From contig CAVRCI010000004.1 in the NCBI GenBank assembly GCA_963719495.1, positions 160,001 through 224,000 on the forward strand: a stretch of 64,000 bases of DNA. The letters are read 5' to 3'. Positions within the stretch are counted from its first letter, which is position 1, and every line of letters starts with the position of its first letter. The notes beneath the pieces were generated by a model. It saw nothing but the letters and a program-made list of their open reading frames with translations, was not told the DNA's origin and did not search any database. Below, in pieces: positions 10,478 through 62,189 of the stretch. This stretch comes from an uncultured Verrucomicrobiae bacterium. GTDB taxonomy: Bacteria; Verrucomicrobiota; Verrucomicrobiia; Chthoniobacterales; JAATET01. A program made the position numbers and the translations under genes.

Positions 10478-12787
10478 TCACGGCTTGTCGGTTGGGTGGA
10501 TGGCGACGGCGCAAGCTTTGTAGGCGGGTTGGCGGCTGGTGGGGTCGACCTCTTGGCGGGTGAGTTCGTTGGTGACGCCGTAGTGCATGGGGAGGAAAAT
10601 CTGGCCGGGCTGGACGACGGGGGTGACGCAGGCGCGGACGGTGATCGTGCCGCGGCGCGACGTGACGTTGACTTGGGACTCGGCGGCGATGCCAAGGTGG
10701 GCGGCGTCGGTGGGGTGGATCTCGACGTAGGGGTCGGCGGGGTAGAGTTTGCGGAGGACGTCGCTTTTGCCGGTGCGGGTCTGGGTGTGCCATTGGGAAG
10801 AGGTGCCGCGGCCGGTGAGCAGGGTGAAGGGGTAGTCGGCGTCGGGGGGTTCGGCGAGGGGGCGGGGGGATTCGAAGATGAAGCGGGCGCGGCCGTCGGG
10901 GTGATGAAAGCGCCCGTCTTCGAAGAGGCGGCGTTCTTTGGAAATGGGAAATTTGAAATGTGGAATGAGAAATGGAGCGTTCGAAATTTCTAATTTCTCA
11001 TTGGACATTTCTAATTCGGTCGGCTCTGCGACCGCTGGCCATTGGATGCCGCCTTCGGTGTCGAGGTGTTGGTAGTCGCGGATGCCGGAGATGTCGCAGG
11101 GTTGGCCGGCGAGCGCGCGTTTCATGATTTGGAAGGCGGCTTCGGGGTTGGTCCATTCACGGAAGAGGTCGCCGCAACCCCAGGTCTCGGCGAGGAGGCG
11201 GATGATGGAGAAGTCGCTGAGGGCCTGGCCGGGGGCGCGGCGGACCTTTTTCACGAGGCCGATGCGGCGCTCGGAATTGATGAAGGTGCCGTCTTTTTCG
11301 CCCCACCCAGCGGCGGGCAGGACGAGGTCGGCGAGTTGGGCCGTCTCGGTCGAGTGATACATGTCCTGGACGACGAGGTAGTCGAGTTTTTGGAGGAGCT
11401 TCTGGGCGCGCTTGGATTGGATCCACGAGTGGGCGGTGTTCGTCGCGATGACCCAGAGGCCTTTGATCTGGCCGGTCTCGATGCCGTCGATGATCTGGTC
11501 GTAGGCGAGGCAGTCATCGTGGGGGATGCGGTCGATGGGGATGCGGAGGGCGTCGGCGACCTTTTCGCGGTCGGCGGGATTCTGAAATTTGTGGCCGCCC
11601 AGGAGATTGGTCGTGCTGGAGAAGATGCGGGACCCCATGGCGTTGCACTGGCCGGTGATGGAATTCGCGCCGGTGCCGGGGCGGCCGAGGTTGCCGGTCA
11701 TGAGCGCGAGGTTGATGATGGCCTGGGCGGTGCGGGTGGCTTCGTGGCTTTGGTTGACGCCCATAGTCCACCAGAACGAGACGCGCTTCCCGGTGGCGAT
11801 GGTGTCGGCGAGGGCCGTGATCTGGGCGGCGGGGAGGCCGGTGGCGGTGGCGGTGGATTCGAGGGTGTAGGGGGAAAGAAAAGTGACGAAGTCACCGAAA
11901 CCGGTGGTGTGGGCGTCGATGTAGGGGCGGTCGATCTGGCCGCGGTCGGTGAGGAGTTTGGCGAGGCCGTAGAGGAGGGTGAGGTCGGATTTCGGCGCGA
12001 GCGCGACGTGGTCGGTAGCGGCCATCGCGGTCTCGGTGCGGCGGGGGTCGATGACGATGATGCGGGGGTTGTGCGGGTTGCGCATCACGCGCTGCCACAT
12101 GATGGGGTGGGCGACGCAGAGGTTGGAGCCGACGAGGACGATGACGTCGGACTCCTCGAAGTCGGCGTAGGCGTAGGGCGGGGCGTCGAAGCCGAAGGAC
12201 TCTTTGTAGGCGGAGACGGCCGTGGCCATACATTGGCGGGTGTTGCCGTCGCCGTGGCGGATGCCCATGCCGAACTTCGCGACGGCTCCGAGGAGGGCCA
12301 TTTCTTCGGAGACGATCTGGCCGGTGCTGAGGAAGGCGAGGCTGTCCGGACCGTGGTCGCGCTGGATGCGCTGGAAATTGTCGCGGAAGGAGGCGGCGGC
12401 GGTGGACCAGTCGGTCGGGGTGAGTTGGCCGGTGGTGGGATCGCGACGGAGCGGCGTGGTGGCGCGGTCGGGGGCGTCGAGGGCCGAGAGGGCTTCCCAG
12501 CCTTTCGGGCAGGCCATGCCAAGGTTGACGGGGTAGTCGGTGTCGGCGCTGAGGTTGATGGCTTCGCCGTCCTTGAGGTGAATGCGAAGGCCACAGCCGG
12601 TGGCGCAGTAGCCGCAGACGGCGGTGGTGGTGGCGTCGGGGGTGAGGCGGGTGGGGACGGAGCCGAGGCCGAAAGCGGCGGGGGATTGGACGAGGTCGGT
12701 CGTGAGGGGGCCGGTGCGGGGACGGAGGATGGAATGCGTCGAGAGTCGAGAGTCGAGAGTCGAGCGGAGTGAGGTGGCGATGGACAT
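10478..12787 (-). CDS. nasA: assimilatory nitrate reductase catalytic subunit (Mo-bisPGD)
   Basis: CGYCATGC...ACPKG Fe-S motif; [42 protein letters not shown]...QWHTQTRT. Located in the nitrate cluster. Confidence 0.92.
10941..11017. repeat. inverted heptamer array, in frame within nasA
   Basis: GAAATGG GAAATTT GAAATGT GGAATGA GAAATGG ... ATTTCTA ATTTCTC ATTGGAC ATTTCTA. Encodes [26 protein letters not shown]. Confidence 0.85.
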
Positions 12788-12962: not shown

Positions 12963-14516
12963 TCAGGCGCCGCCCGGCATGCGGTGGGCAACGACCGTGG
13001 TGAAGAATTGGTGGCGTTCGAGTCCTTCGCTGAACGCGAGGAGAGCGAGGCCGAGCGCGGGAAGGACGGGAAGGAGGAGGATGCCAGCGGCTGCGGTCGC
13101 TAGGCGGATGATGACTTGGCGGTGGAGGGGGCCGCGGAGGAGCTGGGCGGAGAGGGAGTCGTGGGAGGGGTCGGCGGGGTCGGCTTTTGCGCGGAAGCGC
13201 GATTCCGCGAGGAGCTTGGCGCTGAGGATCAGCGCGGGGAGTAGGATCGCGATGGGGTTGAGCGCGGCGAATCCGGCGGTGGCGAAGAGGGCGACGGTGC
13301 CGTAGAAACGGAAGGCGGTGCGGGGTAGGCGCCAGAGTTCGCGGTGGGTGTCGGCGTAGACCATGACGGACGTGAAAACGCAGAGGAGTCCGTAAAGCGC
13401 GGCGGGGATGCCGACGAGTCGAGGAAAGAGGATGGCTCCGGCGACGAGGGGCGGGAGCGCGCCGAAGGCGACGACTTCGCGGCTGAGCCACGAGCGACGG
13501 AGGCCGAGGAAGACGCGCCAGGCTTTGAGGGGTTGGCCGAGGTGGAGGACGCTGGCGGTGAGGCCGATCATGAGCGCCGCAAGGGCGGCGCAGTTTATAG
13601 TTGAGAGTTTATAGTTGAGAGTTGGTGAGAGGGTGAAGGTTGCTGGCGAGATGGTTGCCGCGATCACCAAGCCGACGGCGACCTGGGTGAGGGTGAGCAT
13701 GAGGACGAGGGGGAGGTGGCTGTGCTCGAGGCGGGGGCGGTGGGCGTCGGCGCGGGTGGCGGTGGGGGGGATGTTTTTCTTGGTGACGTAGCGGGTGGTG
13801 GGTTGGGTGTAGCTGGACGTGATGATGCCCGGAATCAGCGGCTCCTCGACCCTCGACCCTCGACTTTCGACCTTCACAATCCGGATCGCTTCGGTTGGGC
13901 AGGCTTGGACGCAGGCCGGGGCTTCGCCGACCGATAGCCGTGAATGGCACATGTCGCATTTGCGGACGATGCCTTTTTTTTTCGAATACTTGGGGACGTC
14001 GTAGGGGCACTTGAGGCTGCAGTATTGGCAGCCGATGCATTGGTCGTCCAAGTGGCGGACGATGCCGGTGACTTCGTCCTTTTCGTAGGCGAGGACGGGG
14101 CAGCCGTTGGCGCAGGCGGGGTCGGCGCAGTGGTGGCAGGCCGTGGTGACGGTCTGCTGGTAGGCGATGCCTTCGGCTTCGCCGAGGAGCATCCCGACGT
14201 CGCGCCACGTTTCGTTTTCCTCGAGTCCGTTGAGACTGTGGCAGGCGGAGACGCAGGCTTTGCAGCCGGTGCATTTGTCGAGGTCGACTTCGAAGGCGTA
14301 TTGTTCGCCGGGGGAAGGCGCGGTGAGGGGAATGAGGTCGCGGTAGTGCCGGGCTTGGGTGGGCGTAGTGACGTCGGCGTGGTGCTGGGAGAAGCGCTCG
14401 GCGGCGGTGAGGTTGCGCTGGTCGGCGAGGAGTTTGTCGATGAGGGTAGGAGGAGGGGTTGGTTGTTGGTTGTTGGTTATTGGTGAATGCCGCTCCGCTG
14501 GGATGAGGGTGTTCAT
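12963..14516 (-). CDS. 4Fe-4S dicluster (DmsB-like) fused to a DmsC/YnfH membrane anchor
   Basis: CTGCKACVSAC, CHHCADPAC, CIGCQYC, CDMC...PACVQACP; ASVLHLGQP...SWLSREV anchor motif. ATGA overlap at 14513-14516. Confidence 0.88.
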   Translation of the reverse strand: MNTLIPAERHSPITNNQQPTPPPTLIDKLLADQRNLTAAERFSQHHADVTTPTQARHYRDLIPLTAPSPGEQYAFEVDLDKCTGCKACVSACHSLNGLEENETWRDVGMLLGEAEGIAYQQTVTTACHHCADPACANGCPVLAYEKDEVTGIVRHLDDQCIGCQYCSLKCPYDVPKYSKKKGIVRKCDMCHSRLSVGEAPACVQACPTEAIRIVKVESRGSRVEEPLIPGIITSSYTQPTTRYVTKKNIPPTATRADAHRPRLEHSHLPLVLMLTLTQVAVGLVIAATISPATFTLSPTLNYKLSTINCAALAALMIGLTASVLHLGQPLKAWRVFLGLRRSWLSREVVAFGALPPLVAGAILFPRLVGIPAALYGLLCVFTSVMVYADTHRELWRLPRTAFRFYGTVALFATAGFAALNPIAILLPALILSAKLLAESRFRAKADPADPSHDSLSAQLLRGPLHRQVIIRLATAAAGILLLPVLPALGLALLAFSEGLERHQFFTTVVAHRMPGGA

Positions 14517-15169: not shown

Positions 15170-16925
15170 CGCGTTGGTAGCGTTTGGTGCTTTCGAGGTT
15201 GGCGACGTAGGTGGCGGCTTCTTCTTCGGTTTTTCCTCCGGCGGTTTGGATGACGATGTGGAGGGCGGCGTCGACGTCTTTGGCCATGCGGCTGGCGTCG
15301 CCGCAGACGTAGAAGTGCGCGCCGTCTTCGAGCCAGGCCCAAAGTTCGGCGGCTTGCTCGATCATGCGGTGCTGGACGTAGATTTTTTCCGCTTGGTCGC
15401 GGGAGAAGGCGGTGTCGAGGCGGGTGAGGTGGCCGTTGGCGAGGAACTCTTCGAGTTCTTCTCGGTAGAGGAAATCGGTGGCGGCCTTTTGGTCGCCGAA
15501 GAGGAGCCAATTTTTGCCGGTGGCGCCGGTGGCTTTGCGGTCGTGGAGGAAGGCGCGGAAGGGGGCGATGCCGGTGCCGGGGCCGACCATGATCATGGGC
15601 GTCTCGGGCGACGGCGGGAGGCGGAAGCCTTTGGAGACCTGGATGAAGACGGGGACCGGGCCGGTGACGCGGTCGGAGAGGAAGGTGGAGCAGGCGCCTT
15701 TGCGCGGGCGGCCGAAGCTTTCGTAGCGGACGGCGGCGGTGGTGAGGTGGACCTGATCCGGGAACGCGCGGAGGCTGGAGGAGATGGAGTAGAGGCGGGG
15801 TTGGAGCTTGCGGAGGTGACCGACGAAGTCGGGGGGGGTGAAGGTGACGCCGGGGAAGTCGGCGAGGAGGTCGATCACTTCGCGGCCCCAGAGGTAGTGG
15901 GCAAGGGCTTCCTTGGCCTCCGGGACCAGGAGGTCGGCGAGGGTCTTGTCGGCGCTGCGCTCGGCGATGGCCTCGAGCAGTGGGGCGGGGATCTTGGTGA
16001 TCTCGTAGTCGCGGGTGAGGGCCTGGCGGAGGGGGGATTCGCCGCCGTCGGGGGTGGGGACGGCTTCCTCGCCGTCGCAATTGAGGGCATGGAGGATCTC
16101 GTCGACGGCGGTGGGGCAATTCGATGGGATGACGCCGAGGGCGTCGCCGACTTCGTAGGTGAGACCGGAGTCGGCGAGGGAGATCTCGAAGTGGCGGACT
16201 TCTTTGGCCGAAGCGGTGGCGGTGAGGAGGCGGTTGGTGAGCAGTTGGGCGGGGAAGGGGTTTTTGCGGCTGTGTTCGGCTGGCGGGGCTGTGATTGGTG
16301 ACTGGTGATTGGTGACTGGTGGGGTGACGGGTTCGCCGGAGGTGAGTTCCAGGCTGTCGAGGACGTTGAAGGTGGCTTCCTGCCAAGTGGCGGCGAGGTC
16401 TTCGTAGTCGACGTTGCAGTCGACTCGGTCGTAGATGCGGGTGGCACCGAGGCCGGCAAGGCGGGTGTCGAGGTCGACGCCGAATTTGCAAAATTCCTCG
16501 TAGTTGGTGTCACCGAGGGCGAGGACGGAGTAGCGGAAATTTTCGAGTCGGGGAGCGCTGTCGGCGATGAGTTCTTCGTGGAAGTCGTGGGCGTTGGCGG
16601 GCGGTTCGCCGTCGCCGAAGGTGCTGGTGACGAAGAGGGCGGCGGGGACGGTGGCGAGGTCGGCGACTTTGACTTTGTCCAGGCCGATGGCGGTGGACTC
16701 GTAGCCACGCTGCTTGGCAGCTTTGGCGATTTGTTTGGCGAGCGATTCGGAGTTGCCGCTTTCGGTGCCGAAGTAGATGGGGAGGGTCTTCTTCGGGGCT
16801 TCGACGGTGGCGGTGGCTGCGCCGGTGCCGCTGAACACGCCGGCGAGAAATCCGTTGAGCCAAGCGCGCTGCTCGGTCGAAAACGGGGCGCTGTCGGGGA
16901 TGAATGGGGCGGCTGAGGTGGTCAT
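15159..16925 (-). CDS. CysJ-like diflavin (FMN/FAD) reductase, probable electron donor to nitrite reductase
   Basis: FGTESGNSE, TSTFGDGEPP, RLYSISSS, MVGPGTGIAPFR, YVCGDASRMAKDV, RYQRDVY. Confidence 0.92.
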   Translation of the reverse strand: MTTSAAPFIPDSAPFSTEQRAWLNGFLAGVFSGTGAATATVEAPKKTLPIYFGTESGNSESLAKQIAKAAKQRGYESTAIGLDKVKVADLATVPAALFVTSTFGDGEPPANAHDFHEELIADSAPRLENFRYSVLALGDTNYEEFCKFGVDLDTRLAGLGATRIYDRVDCNVDYEDLAATWQEATFNVLDSLELTSGEPVTPPVTNHQSPITAPPAEHSRKNPFPAQLLTNRLLTATASAKEVRHFEISLADSGLTYEVGDALGVIPSNCPTAVDEILHALNCDGEEAVPTPDGGESPLRQALTRDYEITKIPAPLLEAIAERSADKTLADLLVPEAKEALAHYLWGREVIDLLADFPGVTFTPPDFVGHLRKLQPRLYSISSSLRAFPDQVHLTTAAVRYESFGRPRKGACSTFLSDRVTGPVPVFIQVSKGFRLPPSPETPMIMVGPGTGIAPFRAFLHDRKATGATGKNWLLFGDQKAATDFLYREELEEFLANGHLTRLDTAFSRDQAEKIYVQHRMIEQAAELWAWLEDGAHFYVCGDASRMAKDVDAALHIVIQTAGGKTEEEAATYVANLESTKRYQRDVY

Positions 16926-16983
16926 TCGTTAAGGGTTCTTAGTTGAGAGTTGTTAGTTGAGAGTGTGATTGCGGCTTCGTTGC

Positions 16984-18756: not shown

Positions 18757-19557
18757 TTAATCGGCCAGGACGGGATCGCCGAAGCGCTCGTAGAGAAAAT
18801 CGAGGACTTGATTGCGGAGGGCGTAGTAGCGCGGGTCTTCCCCGATCTCGGCGCGGGAGCGGGGGCGTTCGAACGGGACGTCGAAGATCTCGCCGATGGT
18901 GGCCTCCGGGCCGTTGGTGAGCATGACGAGGCGGTCGGCGAGGAGGATGGCTTCGTCGATGTCGTGGGTGATCATGACGACGGTGGTGCGGGTGGCTTCC
19001 CAGATCTCGAGGAGCTGATCCTGGACTTCTTCGCGGGTGAGGGCGTCGAGGGCACCGAAGGGTTCGTCGAGGAGGAGGACTTTGGGGCGAATGGCCAGGG
19101 CGCGGGCGATGGCGACGCGCTGCTTCATGCCGCCGGAGAGTTCGCCGGGGCGCTTGTGGGCGCTGGCGGTGAGGCCGACCATGTCGAGGTGTTCGTCGGT
19201 GATGCGGGCGCGCTCGGCTTTGCTCGCTTTGGGCATCGTGGCGCTCACGGCGAGGTGAACGTTCTCGGCCGCGGTGAGCCACGGGAGGAGCGAGTAGTTC
19301 TGGAAGACCATCATGCGGTCGGGGCCGGGTTCGGTGACCTCGGTGCCTTGCAGAATGACGCCGCCCTCGGTGGGGTTGCTCATGCCGGCGATCGCGTTCA
19401 TGAGGGTCGACTTGCCGCAGCCGGAGTGGCCGAGGAGGACGATGAATTCGCCTTCCTGGACGTCGAGCGAAATGTCCTTGAGAACGCAGGCGGGTGGGGC
19501 GCCGGCGCGGCCGGGGAAGGTCTTGGAGAGTTTGGAGAGTTCGAGGTAGGAGCTCAT
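18757..19557 (-). CDS. nrtD: nitrate ABC transporter ATP-binding subunit
   Basis: [32 protein letters not shown] overlap with nrtC. Confidence 0.9.
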
Positions 19558-21377
19558 GCTGGGATAAGGTTGGTTTCGCGCGGAGGCGCGGAGGCGCGGA
19601 GGGATGGATACACTTGGTCGATGGTGGCTTCGCGGTCCTTGGGGGGAGTGATGAGGTTCCAGCGGGTGAGCTCGGTGAGGAGCCAATGGGCTTCTTCGCG
19701 GGTGGGGGTGGTGTCGGAGAAGACGTTGAAGTTGGGGGTCGTTGCCGTCTTGCCGTGGCCGTAGTCGTAGGTGCCGTTGAGGCCGGTAGCGCTGTAGGCG
19801 GGATCGGCGTTGGCGTAAGACTTCCGGGAAATGATCTCGATGAGTTCGGGGCGGTTGGCCATTTTGTCGCACCAGACGCAGGCCTCCTCAATGGCCGCGC
19901 GGATGGCGGCGTGTTTGTCGGGATTGGCTTCGGCCCACGGGGAGGTGGTGCCGAGGATTTTTTCCGGGTGGCCGGGAAGGAGATCGAGGTCCGTCGCAAC
20001 GACGTAGCCGGTGCCTTCGTGGACGGCGCGGGCGTTCCAGGGTTCGCCGACGCAGTAGCCGTCGAGATTCCCAGCGGCGAGGTTGGCGACCATCTGGGCG
20101 GGTGGGACGGAGATGATCTCGACGTCGTGGTCGGGGTCGATTCCGGCGTCGGCGAACCAGCGGCGGAGGATGAGATTGTGCATGGAGGTGGGAAAGACCA
20201 TGCCGAAGATGAGCTTGCGGTGGGTCGGGTCGCGGCGCGGAAGGTAGGCGGCAAGGTCGGCGGCGGACTGGATGCCGAGGGCGTGGAAACGCTCGGCGAG
20301 GGTGATGGCGTTGCCGTTGCGGCTGAGGACCATCGAGGCGATGAGCGGTTTGGCGGGTTGATCGTTGGTGGGGAGCGCGGCTCCGAGCGGCAGGCCGGCG
20401 ACCATGGCGGCGAGGTCGAGACGGCCTTCGGTGACGCCGTCGAGGATGGCCTTCCAACTCGGCTCGCGGCTGAGTCGCACGTCGACTCCGTGCTTTTTGA
20501 AGAGTCCGTGCTCCTGGGCGACGGCGAGCGGGGCGCAGTCGGAGAGGGGGATGAAGCCGATGTCGGTGGTCGTGCGGGGGGCGATGGGACCGCTTTTTTT
20601 GACCTTGTGCTTGTTGAGGAAGTAGAGGAGTTCGTTGCGTTGGCGGTAGTAGTTCGGGTGATTGATGGACTCGGCGCGGGTGCGGGGCCGGGGGAGGCCG
20701 ACGGTCATGAGTTCGCCGACCTTCGCGGCGGGGCCGTTGGACATCATGACGACGCGGTCGGAGAGGAGGAGGGCCTCTTCGACGTCGTGGGTGACCATGA
20801 GGACGGTGATGCGGTGGGCTTCCCAGATGCTTAGTAATTGCTCCTGCAGTCGGCCGCGGGTGAGGGCGTCGAGGGCGCCGAAGGGTTCGTCGAGGAGGAG
20901 GACGCGGGGCTTGGTGACGAGGGCGCGGGCGATGCCGACGCGCTGCTTCATCCCGCCGGAGATTTCGCCGGGGAATTTGTCGGCGGCGGGGACGAGGGAG
21001 ACCATGGCTAAGTGCTCGTCGACGAGGGCGGTGCGGTCGGCCTTGGAGAGTCGGGAGTGGACGGCGTCGACGCTCAGGCGGACGTTGGCGCGCACCGTTA
21101 GCCACGGGAGGAGGGAGTGGTTCTGAAAAACAAACATGCGGTCGGGGCCGGGGCCGGTGACGGGTTTGCCGCCGACGGTGATGCTGCCGGTGTCGCAGGG
21201 GTGGAAGCCGCCGACCATGTTGAGGAGGGTGGATTTCCCGCAGCCGGAGTGGCCGATGAGGGCGACGAATTCGCCTTCGCTAACGCGCAAATTGACCCCT
21301 TGGAGGGCGGGGAATTTTTTTCCGTTGGGAGCAGTGAACGTTTTGCTGACGTCCTGGATGTCGATGAAAGTGGTCAA
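19554..21377 (-). CDS. nrtC: nitrate ABC ATPase with C-terminal NrtA-like regulatory domain
   Basis: N-terminal ABC domain followed by GFIPLSDCAPL...GYCVGEPWN...HPEK. TTG start. Confidence 0.9.
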   Translation of the reverse strand: MTTFIDIQDVSKTFTAPNGKKFPALQGVNLRVSEGEFVALIGHSGCGKSTLLNMVGGFHPCDTGSITVGGKPVTGPGPDRMFVFQNHSLLPWLTVRANVRLSVDAVHSRLSKADRTALVDEHLAMVSLVPAADKFPGEISGGMKQRVGIARALVTKPRVLLLDEPFGALDALTRGRLQEQLLSIWEAHRITVLMVTHDVEEALLLSDRVVMMSNGPAAKVGELMTVGLPRPRTRAESINHPNYYRQRNELLYFLNKHKVKKSGPIAPRTTTDIGFIPLSDCAPLAVAQEHGLFKKHGVDVRLSREPSWKAILDGVTEGRLDLAAMVAGLPLGAALPTNDQPAKPLIASMVLSRNGNAITLAERFHALGIQSAADLAAYLPRRDPTHRKLIFGMVFPTSMHNLILRRWFADAGIDPDHDVEIISVPPAQMVANLAAGNLDGYCVGEPWNARAVHEGTGYVVATDLDLLPGHPEKILGTTSPWAEANPDKHAAIRAAIEEACVWCDKMANRPELIEIISRKSYANADPAYSATGLNGTYDYGHGKTATTPNFNVFSDTTPTREEAHWLLTELTRWNLITPPKDREATIDQVYPSLRASAPPRETNLIPA

Positions 21378-21380
21378 TTT

Positions 21381-21412
21381 ATTTATGATTTACCATTTAT
21401 GATTTATGATTT
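21381..21412. repeat. heptamer array (ATTTATG)n, left flank of the four-helix-bundle gene
   Basis: ATTTATG ATTTACC ATTTATG ATTTATG ATTT. Confidence 0.9.
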
Positions 21413-21422
21413 GGGGTGAGTC

Positions 21423-21779
21423 ATGAATCGGGATCAACTTGCCGCTCGGACGAAGGATTTTGCGAAGCGAGTGCTGCGAGTCGCTGAGGCGCTGCCGACT
21501 GGGTATGCCGGGAGAACGATTGGCGGTCAGATTTGTCGGAGTGGCTGCTCGGTCGCCGCGAACTACCGCGCGGCCTTGAGGGGTAAGTCTCGGGCTGACT
21601 TCGCCAACAAGATTACGATTGTCCTCGAGGAGGCCGACGAAACGATGTTCTGGCTCGAGATGGTGGGTGAGATGGACCTTCTCGCCGAAGACCGAATCAA
21701 GCCGCTCCTGGCCGAGGCTGAAGAGCTGGTCAAGATCTTCGGAGCGACTCTCGCCACCACCAAAAATCATAAATCGTAA
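21423..21779 (+). CDS. four-helix-bundle protein (23S rRNA intervening-sequence protein / Avd-like family)
   Basis: RTKDFAKRV...LP...QICRSGCSVAANYRAA..GKSRADFANKITIVLEEADETMFWLE...EAEELVKIF. Antisense to the surrounding operon. Confidence 0.92.
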   Translation: MNRDQLAARTKDFAKRVLRVAEALPTGYAGRTIGGQICRSGCSVAANYRAALRGKSRADFANKITIVLEEADETMFWLEMVGEMDLLAEDRIKPLLAEAEELVKIFGATLATTKNHKS

Positions 21780-21798
21780 ATCATAAATCATAAATCAG
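21764..21798. repeat. heptamer array (AAATCAT)n, right flank, inverted relative to 21381-21412
   Basis: AAATCAT AAATCGT AAATCAT AAATCAT AAATCAG. Supplies the TAA stop at 21777-21779. Confidence 0.9.
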
Positions 21799-21809
21799 GC
21801 TGGCGACGG

Positions 21810-22838
21810 TCAGTGTTGGAAGCCGACAAGGCGTTGAAGAATCACCATCAGCTGGTCCAGTAAGAATCCAACCAGCCCGATGATGAAGACGGCTACGAAG
21901 ATTTGGGCGAGGGTTTGGCTCGAGCCGTTTTGATACATGTCCCAGATGAATTTTCCCAAGCCGGGGTTCTGGGCCAACATCTCGGCGGCGATGAGGACCA
22001 TCCAGCCAACTCCGAGGCTAAGGCGGAGGCCGGTGAAGATGAAGGGGAGGGCGGAGGGGATGATGATCTTGGTGACTCGGGTCCAGGGGCTTAGCTTGAG
22101 GACGCGGGCGACGTTGAGGTGGTCTTTGTCGATGGAGGCGACGCCGACGGCGGTGTTGATGAGGGTGGGCCAGAGCGAACAGACGGCGACGGTGATCGCG
22201 GAGCTGAGGAAGGCTTTTTCGAAGAGGGGGTCGGTCGGGTTGTAGAGGGCGCTGACCAGGATCATGATGATGGGGAGCCAGGCGAGGGGGGAGACGGGCT
22301 TGAAAATCTGGATGAAGGGCGCGATGGCGCTGTCGACCCACTTGTTGGACCCGGCGAGGATGCCGATGGGGATCGCGATGACGGACGCGATGAGGAATCC
22401 GAAGAAAACGGTGTAAATGCTGGTGAAGACCTGGTCGACGATGGTGGGCTTGCCGGCGTATTTGCGATCCGGGTAGGTTCGGTCGGGGAACTTGGCTTCG
22501 TATTTGGCCTTCTTCTCGTCGAGGCTGGCGTAGAAGTCGCGGGCTTTCGTTCGCTCGTTGGCGTGGTCCTGCCAGAGGGCGGCGCCTTCCTTCCAGGTGG
22601 CGACGGGGCCGGGGATGCTGCCGAAGTTGACTTGGATGTTGGCGGCGACGACGCCCCAGACGACGAGGAAAAGGAGGAAGGCCACCGCGGGGGCGGCGAC
22701 CTTCTGGAGGACGGTGGTGGCGTGGGCGGCGAGCTTGGCGGTATTCAATCTTGGCTTCGTTGCCGGGGGCGTCACGGCGACCGCCGGTGCCTCCGCGAGG
22801 GGCGCGGTGGGTGGGATGGCTTCGGCGGTTTGGCTCAT
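21810..22838 (-). CDS. nrtB: nitrate ABC transporter permease
   Basis: [43 protein letters not shown]. Confidence 0.92.
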
Positions 22839-22872
22839 GGGAGTCTTAAGTTTATAAGAATTAAGAATTAAG

Positions 22873-24207: not shown

Positions 24208-25293
24208 TCAGGCGGTGACTAATTGGCGGGTCCGGGTGGTTTGGTTTTTCGTAATGAGGTCGGGTTCGAGAAAGGCGTCGAAGCAGAGGCGGCGCGCATC
24301 ACTGTCGAGGGGAGCGGGGTTGGATTCGGCGAGGGCGTCGAGGCACCACTCGGCGCGATCGTGCGTGGCGGCGTTGGCCGATCCGCGATAAAACCGGAAG
24401 AGGTCGCCGGGCAGATCGCTGGATTTCGGAACGCCGGTTTGGAATGGGCCGACGAGCGAATTGCGCAGGGTGTCCTCACTCAGGCCGGGAAAGATGCGGC
24501 GCTCGTGGAGGAGCTGCGCGACGGCGGGGCGGTTCGCGGGATCGTCGCAGAATTTGCAGGCTTTGATGAGCGCGGCGCGAAGGGCCTGGCAGGCACCGGG
24601 GGCTTTCGCGCGAACGGAGTCACGCATCATGAGCACCTTTTCGGGGTGGTTTGGTGCGATGCTGCCGCTTGTGGCGATGATCCAACCGTCGCCCGCGAGG
24701 GCGGCTTGGGAATTCCAGGGTTCGCCGACGCAGAAGCCGTCGATGAGGCCCGCCCGGAGGTGTTCGCCGACGAGGGGTGGGGGCAGGACGACGGTGCGGA
24801 CGTCGCGGTCGGGGTGAAGACCGCAGGAGCGGAGCCACTCGCGCAGGAGAAAGGGATGGCTGGAGTGGGCGGAGGCGACGGCGAAGGTGGGGCGGCGGGG
24901 GGCTTCGCCGCGGAGCGTGAGGCGGAGGCTGGCGGCGTCGCGGACGCCCTTTTCCCAGAATCGGCGCGAGAGGGTGATGGCGTTGCCGCCGAGGTTGATG
25001 ACGAGATCGGTGGAGACGGGGCGGGGGCGGGTGAGGGTGCCGAGGAGAATTGAAAAGAGGAGTCCGCCGGGCGCGTGGGCGGCGTCGAGTTCGTCGTAGA
25101 CGATCTTTTCGCGGATGGATCCCCAGCCGAGTTCGGCGCTGAGTCGGACGTCGAGCCCGGCTTTGCGGAAGAGGCCGCGTTCTTCGGCGACTAGGAGGGG
25201 GGCGGCGTCGATGAGGGGGACGTAACCGATACGAAAATCACCACGCGTCGGGGTGACGATGGGTTTCGTTGATTTGACGAAGGCCTTGGACAC
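24208..25293 (-). CDS. cytoplasmic NrtA-like protein (NasS-type nitrate sensor)
   Basis: GYVPLIDAAPL, GWGSIREK, DGFCVGEPWN, HPEKVL. No signal peptide. Start uncertain (GTG 25293, or ATG 25389 overlapping the LysR ATG). Confidence 0.8.
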   Translation of the reverse strand: MSKAFVKSTKPIVTPTRGDFRIGYVPLIDAAPLLVAEERGLFRKAGLDVRLSAELGWGSIREKIVYDELDAAHAPGGLLFSILLGTLTRPRPVSTDLVINLGGNAITLSRRFWEKGVRDAASLRLTLRGEAPRRPTFAVASAHSSHPFLLREWLRSCGLHPDRDVRTVVLPPPLVGEHLRAGLIDGFCVGEPWNSQAALAGDGWIIATSGSIAPNHPEKVLMMRDSVRAKAPGACQALRAALIKACKFCDDPANRPAVAQLLHERRIFPGLSEDTLRNSLVGPFQTGVPKSSDLPGDLFRFYRGSANAATHDRAEWCLDALAESNPAPLDSDARRLCFDAFLEPDLITKNQTTRTRQLVTA

Positions 25294-25370
25294 GCGATTT
25301 CTTTGAGCATCGGCGGTGCCATCGCGCCGAATCCGTTCCAAAAATGGCGTGATTGTTTTCTTCGGAAATG

Positions 25371-25385
25371 ATGAATGGGATTCAT
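25371..25385. promoter_or_regulatory. LysR-type T-N11-A palindrome ATGAAT-GGG-ATTCAT
   Basis: Dyad in the divergent lysR/nitrate-operon region, 2 nt before the LysR ATG. Confidence 0.6.
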
Positions 25386-25387
25386 TC

Positions 25388-26308
25388 ATGGAATCCGACC
25401 TCGACCTCCGATTGCTCCGGGTGTTTACGACGCTTGCACGGGTGGGGAGTTTTACCCGAACGGCGGAGCTGATGAGCGTGACGCAGTCGGCGATCAGTCA
25501 CGGGATGAAGCGGCTGGAGGAGCAGCTTGGGTGTCCTCTGATCTACAAGAAGGGCAAAACGACGCACCTGACACCGGAGGGGCGGCGATTTTTGGGTCAG
25601 GTGCTTCGGATTCTCGACGCGGTGGATCGGGCGGCGGAGTCGGTGTCGACGAAGGGCGCCGCGTCGGGGAAGCTGAGTGTGATTTTCACGACATCGATGG
25701 CGCAGTCGATCCTGGCACCGGTTCTACGGGAGTTTCGCGAGTCGTATCCGGACGTGTCGGTGATCGTGAAGTTGCAAAACTCGCCGCAGGCGGTGAAGGA
25801 AGTCGAGGAAGGGACGGCGGATCTGGCGTTGGTGGTAGAGGATGTGCTGCCGGTGGGTTTGAAGGCGCATCCGCTCTTCGAGGATCAGCTCGAGTTACTG
25901 GTCTCGCCGTTGCATCGGTGGGCGGACGTGAAGCGGTTGTCGACGGCGGATTTGTCGAAGGAGCACTTTCTGCTTTATCAGCAGGGGAGCGTCACGTTTC
26001 GGCGGATGGAGGATTATTTTTTGCAGTGCGGCGTGCGGTTGCAGTCCTACGTGGAGATTCCGAGTTTCGAGGTGATGAAGCAGCTGGCGCGGTTGGGCCT
26101 GGGGGTGGCGCTGATGGCTCCGTGGGTGGCGGCCGATGAACTGGCGGACGGGTCGCTGGTGGCGCGGCCAACTCCCAAGTCTACCGTTAAGCGAAAATGG
26201 GTCGTGGTGCATCAGGGGCACCGGGTGCTGCGGGAGACGGAGCAGACGTTTATCGGGCTTTGCCGAATGGCGGCGGCGCGGGTGGAGGGGAGGGGGGTGG
26301 GTGGGTGA
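25388..26308 (+). CDS. LysR-family transcriptional regulator
   Basis: LRLLRVF...GSFTRTAELMSVTQSAISHGMKRLEEQLG...LTPEG HTH plus substrate-binding domain. Confidence 0.95.
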   Translation: MESDLDLRLLRVFTTLARVGSFTRTAELMSVTQSAISHGMKRLEEQLGCPLIYKKGKTTHLTPEGRRFLGQVLRILDAVDRAAESVSTKGAASGKLSVIFTTSMAQSILAPVLREFRESYPDVSVIVKLQNSPQAVKEVEEGTADLALVVEDVLPVGLKAHPLFEDQLELLVSPLHRWADVKRLSTADLSKEHFLLYQQGSVTFRRMEDYFLQCGVRLQSYVEIPSFEVMKQLARLGLGVALMAPWVAADELADGSLVARPTPKSTVKRKWVVVHQGHRVLRETEQTFIGLCRMAAARVEGRGVGG

Positions 26309-47034: not shown

Positions 47035-47098
47035 GGCGAGCGAGCGAACGAACGAACGAACGATTGAACGAACGAACGAATGATTGAATGAATGAATC
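47035..47098. repeat. tetranucleotide microsatellite (GAGC/GAAC/GAAT)n
   Basis: GCGAGCGAGCGAACGAACGAACGAACGATTGAACGAACGAACGAATGATTGAATGAATGAAT. Confidence 0.9.
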
Positions 47099-61960: not shown

Positions 61961-62189
61961 CGGATGGGGAAGGGCTGCCCGCCAGGGCGCGGGCTCCGGG
62001 GGATGGGCTTCGCCTTTTCAAAGGACGCGCTTCGCGCGGTGCCGGTCGAACTTCGTTCTCATCCCTCGGATGGGGAGGGATTGCCCGCCAAGGCGCGGGC
62101 TCCGGGGGATGGGCTTCGCCTTATATCTCGAGCGCGCTTCGCGCAACGCCGGTCGAACTCCGTTCTCATCCCTCGGATGGGGAGGGATT
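61961..62189. repeat. tRNA-linked tandem repeats, ~106-107 bp period
   Basis: CGGATGGGGA(G)GG... recurs at 61961, 62067 and 62174. The two downstream units are highly similar. Confidence 0.85.

Follow-up and report, generated by a model that had tools for sequence, protein, structure and literature searches.

The cassette between nrtB and nrtC

The DNA analysed here (the window) is a 64,000-nucleotide stretch of contig CAVRCI010000004.1 from an uncultured Verrucomicrobiae bacterium, and it carries a nitrate operon on its minus strand. Between the operon genes nrtB and nrtC lies a plus-strand gene for a four-helix-bundle protein, enclosed by inverted arms of 7-base units. We refer to the gene and its arms as the cassette. 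The window's own genome is designated G000; G001, G002, G003 and G004 belong to the same genus and G012 to the same family. The features of the locus are as follows.

21381–21795, no strand: whole cassette from arm to arm, about 415 bp, bounded by inverted arms; four-unit boundaries give 413 bp (21382–21794)
21381–21418, plus strand: 5' arm, TTTATGA TTTACCA TTTATGA TTTATGA with an inner extension (sequence, repeat and inverted-repeat detection)
21413–21419, plus strand: Shine-Dalgarno-like GGGGTGA, 3 nt before the ATG (by sequence; also present in G003)
21423–21779, plus strand: four-helix-bundle gene (TIGR02436/PF05635, S23p family), 118 amino acids, antisense to the operon (open reading frame (ORF) and profile matches)
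21758–21797, plus strand: 3' arm, TCATAAA TCGTAAA TCATAAA TCATAAA, encoding the C-terminal NHKS and the TAA stop
21810–22838, minus strand: nrtB permease, host gene, upstream in the sense of the operon (ORF and profile matches)
19554–21377, minus strand: nrtC ATPase fused to an NMT1_2 domain, TTG start, host gene downstream (ORF and profile matches)

A preliminary description, made from the sequence alone, had placed a plus-strand gene between inverted heptamer arrays inside this minus-strand operon, and the ORFs, profile matches and repeat arrays bear it out. The tandem arrays comprise 4.6 copies of ATTTATG (21381–21412) and 4.9 copies of AAATCAT (21764–21797). As that description also stated, the right array supplies the stop codon, since TAA (21777–21779) and the terminal residues NHKS fall within it, and the left array is separated from the TTG of nrtC by a gap of 3 bases. 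The word GGGGTGA matches the 3' end of the 16S rRNA of G000, GGATCACCTCCTTT. The best profile match of nrtB is TIGR01183, under the equivalog cut-off, and that of nrtC is TIGR01184, over the cut-off.

The two arms (21381–21418 and 21758–21795, 38 nt each) are 87% complementary. In predicted folds, a stem closes the region on both strands (z = −3.47 on the operon strand and −3.68 on the gene strand), and none of 100 shuffles of either strand did as well. These values agree with the earlier proposal that the arms could form a stem of about 30 bp looping out the gene. The inverted-flank score of the window copy is 24.5, compared with at most 12 in a random control of equal geometry. An Rfam search of 21200–22000 gave nothing near the gathering score; the sole match, to snR75, is a chance hit (16.9 bits versus 40). 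A 133-residue minus-strand ORF at 21390–21791 was considered as a gene and rejected. It is an in-register shadow of the cassette gene without an NCBIfam or Pfam match, its ratio of nonsynonymous to synonymous substitution rates (dN/dS) is 1.5, and 38 of 51 relatives have it open, a share that the GC content leads one to expect.

The cassette protein scores 76 bits against TIGR02436, where the cut-off is 24, and 52.3 bits against PF05635, where it is 33.8. Its predicted structure (pLDDT 95.7) has four helices, at residues 3–23, 28–52, 57–83 and 89–115. The model matches 2RLD and 2GSC with template-modelling (TM) scores of 0.85 and 0.82, and Avd, the accessory protein of diversity-generating retroelements (DGRs; 4DWL), with 0.74, at about 11% identity to Avd. 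The relation to Avd suggested earlier thus stands as an S23p/Avd-like fold. Among the 42 close relatives defined below, 27 proteins end in NHKS.

Between G000 and G003, dN/dS of the cassette gene is 0.058. The 14 pairs tested comprise nine antisense pairs below 90% nucleotide identity, all with ratios of 0.035–0.11, two antisense pairs of near-identical sequence (0.20 and 0.31) and three sense pairs (0.08–0.14); the in-register antisense frame gives 0.74–3.4 across pairs. By this measure, the backward gene is under purifying selection on its protein frame. The operon mRNA carries only the non-coding strand of the gene, which removes any reading in which the protein is made from that mRNA. Because the protein is selected, the cassette gene likely needs a transcript of its own.

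Occupancy of junctions in relatives and paralogs in G000

The window's nrtC was found in 4 of 61 genomes searched. In G003, the nrtB/nrtC junction also holds a backward cassette, with a protein 89% identical in amino acids to that of the window; in G012 (nrtB 81% identical) and G059, it is a plain gap of about 20 nt without a cassette. A class-wide sample of window-type (type I) nrtB orthologs contains 3 filled and 17 empty junctions out of 20, with gaps of 0–68 nt in the empty ones. For a second nrtB type (type II), 30 of 57 matches were fetched; one junction is filled, one holds a gene-less two-arm remnant (L206), one is unreadable and 27 have no cassette. On the nrtB tree, three filled type-I lineages each adjoin an empty one, and at least 15 state changes are required among 72 rows. 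Empty sites at this junction, for which the preliminary description proposed to look, are therefore present, and the gene is not ancestral and syntenic in all relatives.

Other junctions vary as well. At metK/ahcY (names read from the translations), G000 and G002 hold different cassettes, 53% identical in amino acids and built from different units, and G001, G003 and G004 hold none. The gap/pgk junction is filled in 4 of 6 genomes within the genus. Upstream of pgk, G001 and G002 carry a gene-less hairpin of a different type (L261, L262) and congeners carry a four-helix cassette. Before rnc, the RNase III gene, none of 30 fetched loci (of 41 matches) is filled, and one has a remnant of the TT(T/G)ATGA unit. 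L288 is a gene-less cassette remnant.

Close relatives of the window copy were collected at 53 loci with at least 55% identity; merging identical proteins and dropping L177, which is too short, left 42. All 42 have TT(T/G)ATGA arms, and they are spread over nine junction types.

nrtB/nrtC: 24 loci, antisense
nrtA/nrtB: 1 locus, antisense
small ORF/nrtB: 3 loci, antisense
hypothetical/rnc: 6 loci, 3 antisense and 3 sense
TPP-enzyme/DHO_dh: 4 loci, sense
BFN/holA: 1 locus, antisense
ATP-grasp/Alpha-E: 1 locus, antisense
fliG/fliH: 1 locus, antisense
Pyr_redox_2/unidentified: 1 locus, sense

The cassette is antisense in 34 of these 42 relatives, at seven junction types. At 61 more distant loci, where orientation is a rough call from Pfam matches and ORF length, 22 copies are co-oriented with the genes on both sides, 20 with one side (the other being unclear) and 10 are mixed; only 4 are antisense on both sides and 3 on one side, and 2 are unclear. 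On these calls, antisense placement is a trait of the window's lineage and is rare among more distant family members. The ends are nearly fixed in this lineage. Arms of four units occur at 37 of 41 loci on the 5' side and at 33 of 41 on the 3' side (L154 was skipped), and element length over 41 loci is 392–454 bp, mostly 426–435 bp. Outside the arms of the close-clade loci, a conserved 4-nt terminus is unsupported beyond a common first T.

Six loci (L016, L017, L022, L030, L119 and L126) have the cassette immediately in front of the RNase III gene, some in one orientation and some in the other; at most of the six, the arm provides the ATG of rnc. The gene on the other side encodes a protein without a Pfam match. 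If RNase III cuts the stem, feedback is possible at these sites.

G000 contains nine TIGR02436 matches, eight of them full length. A survey of paralogs for inverted heptamer flanks, also proposed at the outset, found such flanks by eye at all eight full-length genes, each with a unit of its own; six exceed the maximum score of 12 in 150 random windows, and the other two score 10 and 12. The seven besides the window copy read as co-oriented with their neighbours (three checked by Pfam, the rest by reading only). At homolog loci from other genomes, the inverted score reaches at least 12 in 58 of 80, compared with 0 of 73 control windows, and each protein clade retains its own heptamer unit. Period-7 arrays are abundant in G000: 237 under strict criteria, versus 27 of period 6 and 49 of period 8, and 346 under relaxed criteria. 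Among them are gene-less hairpins, as well as seven single arms built from the TTTATGA-type unit of the window copy. The earlier view of a discrete cassette delimited by heptamer inverted repeats, with no transposase, gains from this patchy occurrence, from the paralogs with inverted flanks of their own, and from a build like that of the Coxiella intervening sequence (IVS) discussed below.

In G003, the nrtB/nrtC locus (L245, C3:640500–642100) carries, besides the cassette, three slightly diverged tandem repeats of residues 23–118 plus the arm; the joints fall at a short stretch in which codons 22–24 resemble the end of nrtB. Duplications on the 3' side of three G000 paralogs resemble these repeats. 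All four GxxExxY/PDDEXK_3 (PF13366) genes of G000 (L240–L243; C15:65465, C14:136015, C2:417373 and C12:90743) are flanked by inverted arrays of units of about 8–10 bases, with scores of 15.5–27.5 versus a control maximum of 12. These loci are a parallel cassette type with nuclease-fold cargo.

Expression, movement and rival explanations

The gene on the backward strand has a candidate promoter of its own, identified by sequence.

21361–21389, plus strand: weak candidate promoter, TCGATG, 17 nt, TATGAT (8 of 12 positions match); the arm's first heptamer forms the −10-like box

In G003, too, this pair ranks as the best candidate. Of the antisense relatives, 29 have a long gap ahead of the ATG, and in 26 of these the innermost unit reads TTGATG. 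When the 29 are lined up at their last TTGATG, 16 variable bases follow, after which the two key −10 positions carry A in 21 and T in 18 of the rows. The pattern nAnnnT with a spacer of 16–18 nt occurs in 18 of these 29 versus 3.0 in shuffles, a comparison that overstates the signal because the rows are related sequences. By reading of the rows, the motif is present in one of four long-gap sense copies. The boxes were judged by the sigma-70 consensus, whose use in this phylum is assumed. In the long-gap antisense relatives, the −10-like box ends about 6–10 nt before the ATG, so the mRNA would be nearly leaderless and would lack the 5' arm. A literature search on leaderless promoters in Verrucomicrobia found nothing. 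We regard the predicted arm promoter as moderately supported in the lineage and weakly supported in the window copy.

On the operon strand, the predicted stem pairs bases up to 3 nt before the nrtC start. Between positions −20 and +3 of that start, the predicted mean unpaired probability is 0.23 when both arms are present and 0.65 when the distal arm is left out. Gene order and the short gaps in empty orthologs suggest that nrtB and nrtC are co-transcribed. RNase III is encoded in G000. In Coxiella, this enzyme cuts at the first heptamer of the 28-bp IVS stem (PMC4990558), and in Haemophilus it cuts a hairpin containing heptamers in a 5' untranslated region (PMC12721329). By analogy, a cut of the stem on the operon mRNA is plausible.

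Several comparisons bear on whether the cassette moves. Contigs from three DNA runs are short pieces with no cassette-spanning joint among the joints listed, which counts neither for nor against. The protein tree mixes junction types, and copies 94–97% identical occupy different junctions. Two adjoining junctions of L124 each hold a copy, and one of these copies is interrupted by a premature stop. A single clade for the four copies beside type-I nrtB is rejected by the approximately unbiased (AU) test (p = 0.0033), for a group that was defined from nrtB identity but tested after the tree had been seen. In L146 (1980–2385), a 14-nt fliG/fliH overlap stands on both sides of the cassette and both genes are whole; among the 15 empty relatives fetched, out of 44 matches, the 7 closest show the overlap itself. 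The duplicated overlap points to gain. It is the one flanking duplication among 41 loci, and it lies at an overlapping gene pair. Between G000 and G003, the cassette protein, nrtB and the ATPase are each 89–92% identical. Across operons, the window protein is 58–67% identical to copies whose nrtB is 33–50% and whose ATPase is 40–49% identical. That the cassette is more alike than its host genes speaks for its arrival once those operons had already diverged. Before rnc, sense and antisense copies belong to different subclades; a simple flip at this site is therefore disfavoured, and separate insertions fit better. We infer from these comparisons that the cassette is mobile, and consider this well supported.

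As for what moves it, the cassette encodes no transposase, its only match being PF05635; DDE transposases elsewhere in G000 were not searched. A Y1/RAYT transposase and a reverse transcriptase were considered as movers and rejected, the former because the Y1 genes of G000 have no inverted heptamer flanks and the latter because none was found in G000.

Given the observed anatomy, patchy occupancy, nine junction types in both directions and purifying selection, we favour, as probable though far from certain, the following reading: a cassette of about 430 bp, with four inverted heptamer units on each side of an S23p gene, is likely mobile and likely inserted into the short nrtB–nrtC gap, where it likely works backward via the predicted arm promoter. 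It would copy itself whole into gaps that separate co-transcribed genes, with both reading frames left intact, and its symmetric arms would allow it to land in either orientation. Most family members are oriented like the operon around them and would be carried on its transcript. In the window's lineage, the TT(T/G)ATGA unit may supply −35-like (TTGATG) and −10-like (TATGAT) boxes and so permit expression when backward. When the operon is transcribed, pairing of the arms in its mRNA would give a stem of about 30 bp, and the nrtC start would stay masked until this stem is opened or cleaved; the likeliest agent is the host's RNase III, as for the Coxiella IVS. Cleavage at this place falls between genes and would need no re-joining, so the host would pay little. 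The cassette mRNA would be fully antisense to the operon mRNA, which is the layout of a noncontiguous operon. The Avd-like protein is likely kept for binding the arm hairpin, serving the element's own spread, and the strand-transfer enzyme would be supplied in trans.

A number of observations weigh against this reading. Regarding expression, besides the relatedness of the promoter rows, the window copy is of the short type, with an 11-nt gap and the Shine-Dalgarno word, and its best promoter candidates reach only 8 of 12 matches; a consensus promoter scan of 21200–21950 gave no site. Regarding movement, neither the window copy nor most of the others among the 41 loci show a flanking duplication. 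Filled loci were found by searching with the cassette protein, and the counts by site are biased accordingly. In filled operons, the more alike the host genes are, the more alike the cassettes tend to be (Mantel rho 0.52 with nrtB, n = 23, and 0.58 with the ATPase, n = 20), and the G000/G003 pair is an outlier in both the cassette tree and the ATPase tree, which suggests that long residence with many losses explains part of the pattern. Regarding the enzyme, G000 (98.6% complete) has no RVT_1 (PF00078) match, DGR template and variable repeat (TR/VR) pairs not having been searched, and none of the 12 Y1_Tnp (IS200/RAYT-like) genes in its 4.5-Mb genome (L227–L238) has inverted heptamer flanks.

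Long residence is the core of one alternative, which we consider unlikely: the cassette would be an old inhabitant of nitrate-type ABC operons and a regulator, whose antisense transcript and stem tune nrtC/nrtD relative to nrtA/nrtB, and it would since have been lost in most lineages. The 24 of 42 close relatives at nrtB/nrtC, all antisense, with four more at the junction before nrtB, speak for such a role. The positive Mantel correlations point the same way, noncontiguous operons regulate in this manner (PMC7154746), and the gene-less remnants L206 and L288 show that loss occurs. However, most sampled operons are without a trace of the cassette, the state changes on the nrtB tree are numerous, the window protein resembles copies from operons with far more divergent host genes, and the same clade stands beside rnc, fliH, holA and others. 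Excision from the operon mRNA as an IVS was raised in the preliminary description; taken as the main explanation, with the function lying in the RNA set free or in the act of cutting, it seems to us quite improbable. The size, stem and heptamer build are those of the IVS that RNase III excises in Coxiella, the stem is predicted on the operon strand, rnc is present, and the Haemophilus hairpin provides a second precedent for such a cut. The excised piece would be the non-coding strand, yet selection acts on the protein frame (dN/dS 0.058 versus 1.5 for the in-register antisense frame). Excision alone explains neither the conserved protein nor the movement, and a cut may still occur as a side effect.

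There may also be no element at all, a reading to which we give very little weight: slippage-prone heptamer microsatellites would flank a small accessory gene (for example for defence or stress) that is moved by ordinary recombination, and the arms would let the gene flip. The abundance of solitary heptamer arrays, the G003 tandem repeats joined at a short likeness, and the occurrence of both orientations before rnc speak for this. Against it, four units is the usual arm length on either side, the unit is particular to each protein clade, inverted flanks are common at homolog loci and absent from control windows, and the rnc-side copies fall into different subclades.

Extending the favoured reading of a mobile cassette, we tentatively propose, as a possibility rather than an expectation, that it represents an undescribed class of mobile elements without a transposase. 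The Avd-like protein would recognise the four-unit hairpin and insert at stop/start junctions with a host enzyme, duplicating overlaps where needed. Ribosomal IVSs would be one habitat of the class, and decayed arms the source of the bacterial heptamer excess. In the window's lineage, the unit would have turned into a promoter, leading to backward insertion and noncontiguous operons, repeatedly at nitrate ABC junctions.

Relation to known systems and other features of the window

The closest counterpart is the IVS in helix 45 of the Coxiella burnetii 23S rRNA (PMC4990558). It has nearly the same length (428 nt, compared with about 430 nt), terminal inverted repeats that pair into a stem of about 28 bp, an S23p four-helix ORF preceded by tandem heptamers, a sporadic distribution and no transposase, and it is described as horizontally acquired. 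The preliminary description held that this family lies antisense within 23S IVSs. This does not apply to Coxiella, where the Shine-Dalgarno sequence and heptamers are at the 5' end of the excised IVS RNA and the ORF is therefore sense to the rRNA; that ORF is described as decaying and probably untranslated (PMC4990558). The cassette differs in lying outside 23S rRNA, between the protein genes nrtB and nrtC, in opposing its host transcript, in being under purifying selection and in having its own predicted promoter. The Leptospira IVS ORF is likewise sense to the rRNA. RNase III cutting is shown for the Coxiella IVS and is plausible for the cassette. The cassette is thus built like an ORF-bearing 23S IVS, yet it is no member of that group, because it lies outside rRNA and backward.

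In its orientation, the cassette resembles the noncontiguous operon menE-menC-MW1733-ytkD-MW1731 of S. aureus (PMC7154746), where a protein gene lies opposite to the operon that spans it. Along its whole length, the mRNA of such a gene is antisense to the operon, which exposes it to RNase III and to colliding polymerases (PMC7154746). The S. aureus case is a regulatory layout described without repeat arms; the cassette is bounded by repeats and missing from most orthologous operons, and co-transcription of nrtB and nrtC is suggested here by gene order and the short gaps. Avd (PDB 4DWL, 8UB7) shares the four-helix fold and is an RNA-binding pentamer described as similar to S23 proteins (bioRxiv 10.1101/2023.10.23.563531). 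The cassette departs from the Avd/DGR system in its low identity and in the lack of any reverse transcriptase found in G000.

Dispersed heptamers have been described as TAACTGA in Beggiatoaceae (PMC4679880) and GGGAATC in Xanthomonas and Nostoc (PMC4692102). They too are intergenic and often stand before starts or in inverted pairs, and the origin of these arrays is unexplained in those accounts; a word search of the two main texts gave no four-helix or S23 genes. In contrast to them, full cassettes, gene-less hairpins and single arms of one unit coexist here. Short inverted-repeat units, gene-less derivatives and possible movement in trans are also found in repetitive extragenic palindromes with their transposases (REP/RAYT) and in miniature transposable elements bounded by inverted repeats (MITEs; PMC3733652), and terminal inverted repeats of defined length recall insertion sequences. 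Unlike REP/RAYT elements and MITEs, the cassette encloses no HUH/Y1 or DDE transposase gene, and the Y1 genes of G000 are without inverted heptamer flanks. Literature searches, which covered few subscription journals, found no description of a unit of gene plus arms outside rRNA.

In the cassette, three subjects meet: the rRNA intervening sequences, a large protein family whose function is unknown, and the wealth of 7-base repeats in bacteria, which has lacked an explanation. The window's lineage adds fixed four-unit ends, a likely arm-encoded promoter, one junction that was used repeatedly and one insertion whose flanks are duplicated. Movement without a transposase of its own, if that is what the cassette does, would be new chemistry. 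The cassette would also be a natural source of antisense control, of the noncontiguous-operon kind, over nitrate uptake, RNase III and flagellar genes.

The nitrate operon is headed by an NMT1_2 protein (24208–25389, minus strand) upstream of nrtA, which we take to be a NasS-like sensor, and by a divergent LysR regulator (25316–26308, plus strand). Eight more single heptamer arrays of differing units lie in the same operon, either at junctions, including nrtA/nrtB, or absorbed into coding stretches.

22855–22872: single heptamer array
16935–16964: single heptamer array
16291–16321: single heptamer array
14458–14484: single heptamer array
13844–13872: single heptamer array
13592–13624: single heptamer array
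12738–12764: single heptamer array
10940–10975: single heptamer array

Elsewhere in the window, positions 61961–62189 hold about 2.2 tandem copies of a 106-bp GC-rich unit starting CGGATGGGGA; the stretch that follows reads like a tRNA 3' end on the minus strand. At 47037–47097, a (CGAA)n/(TGAA)n tetranucleotide array stands beside a palindromic stretch.
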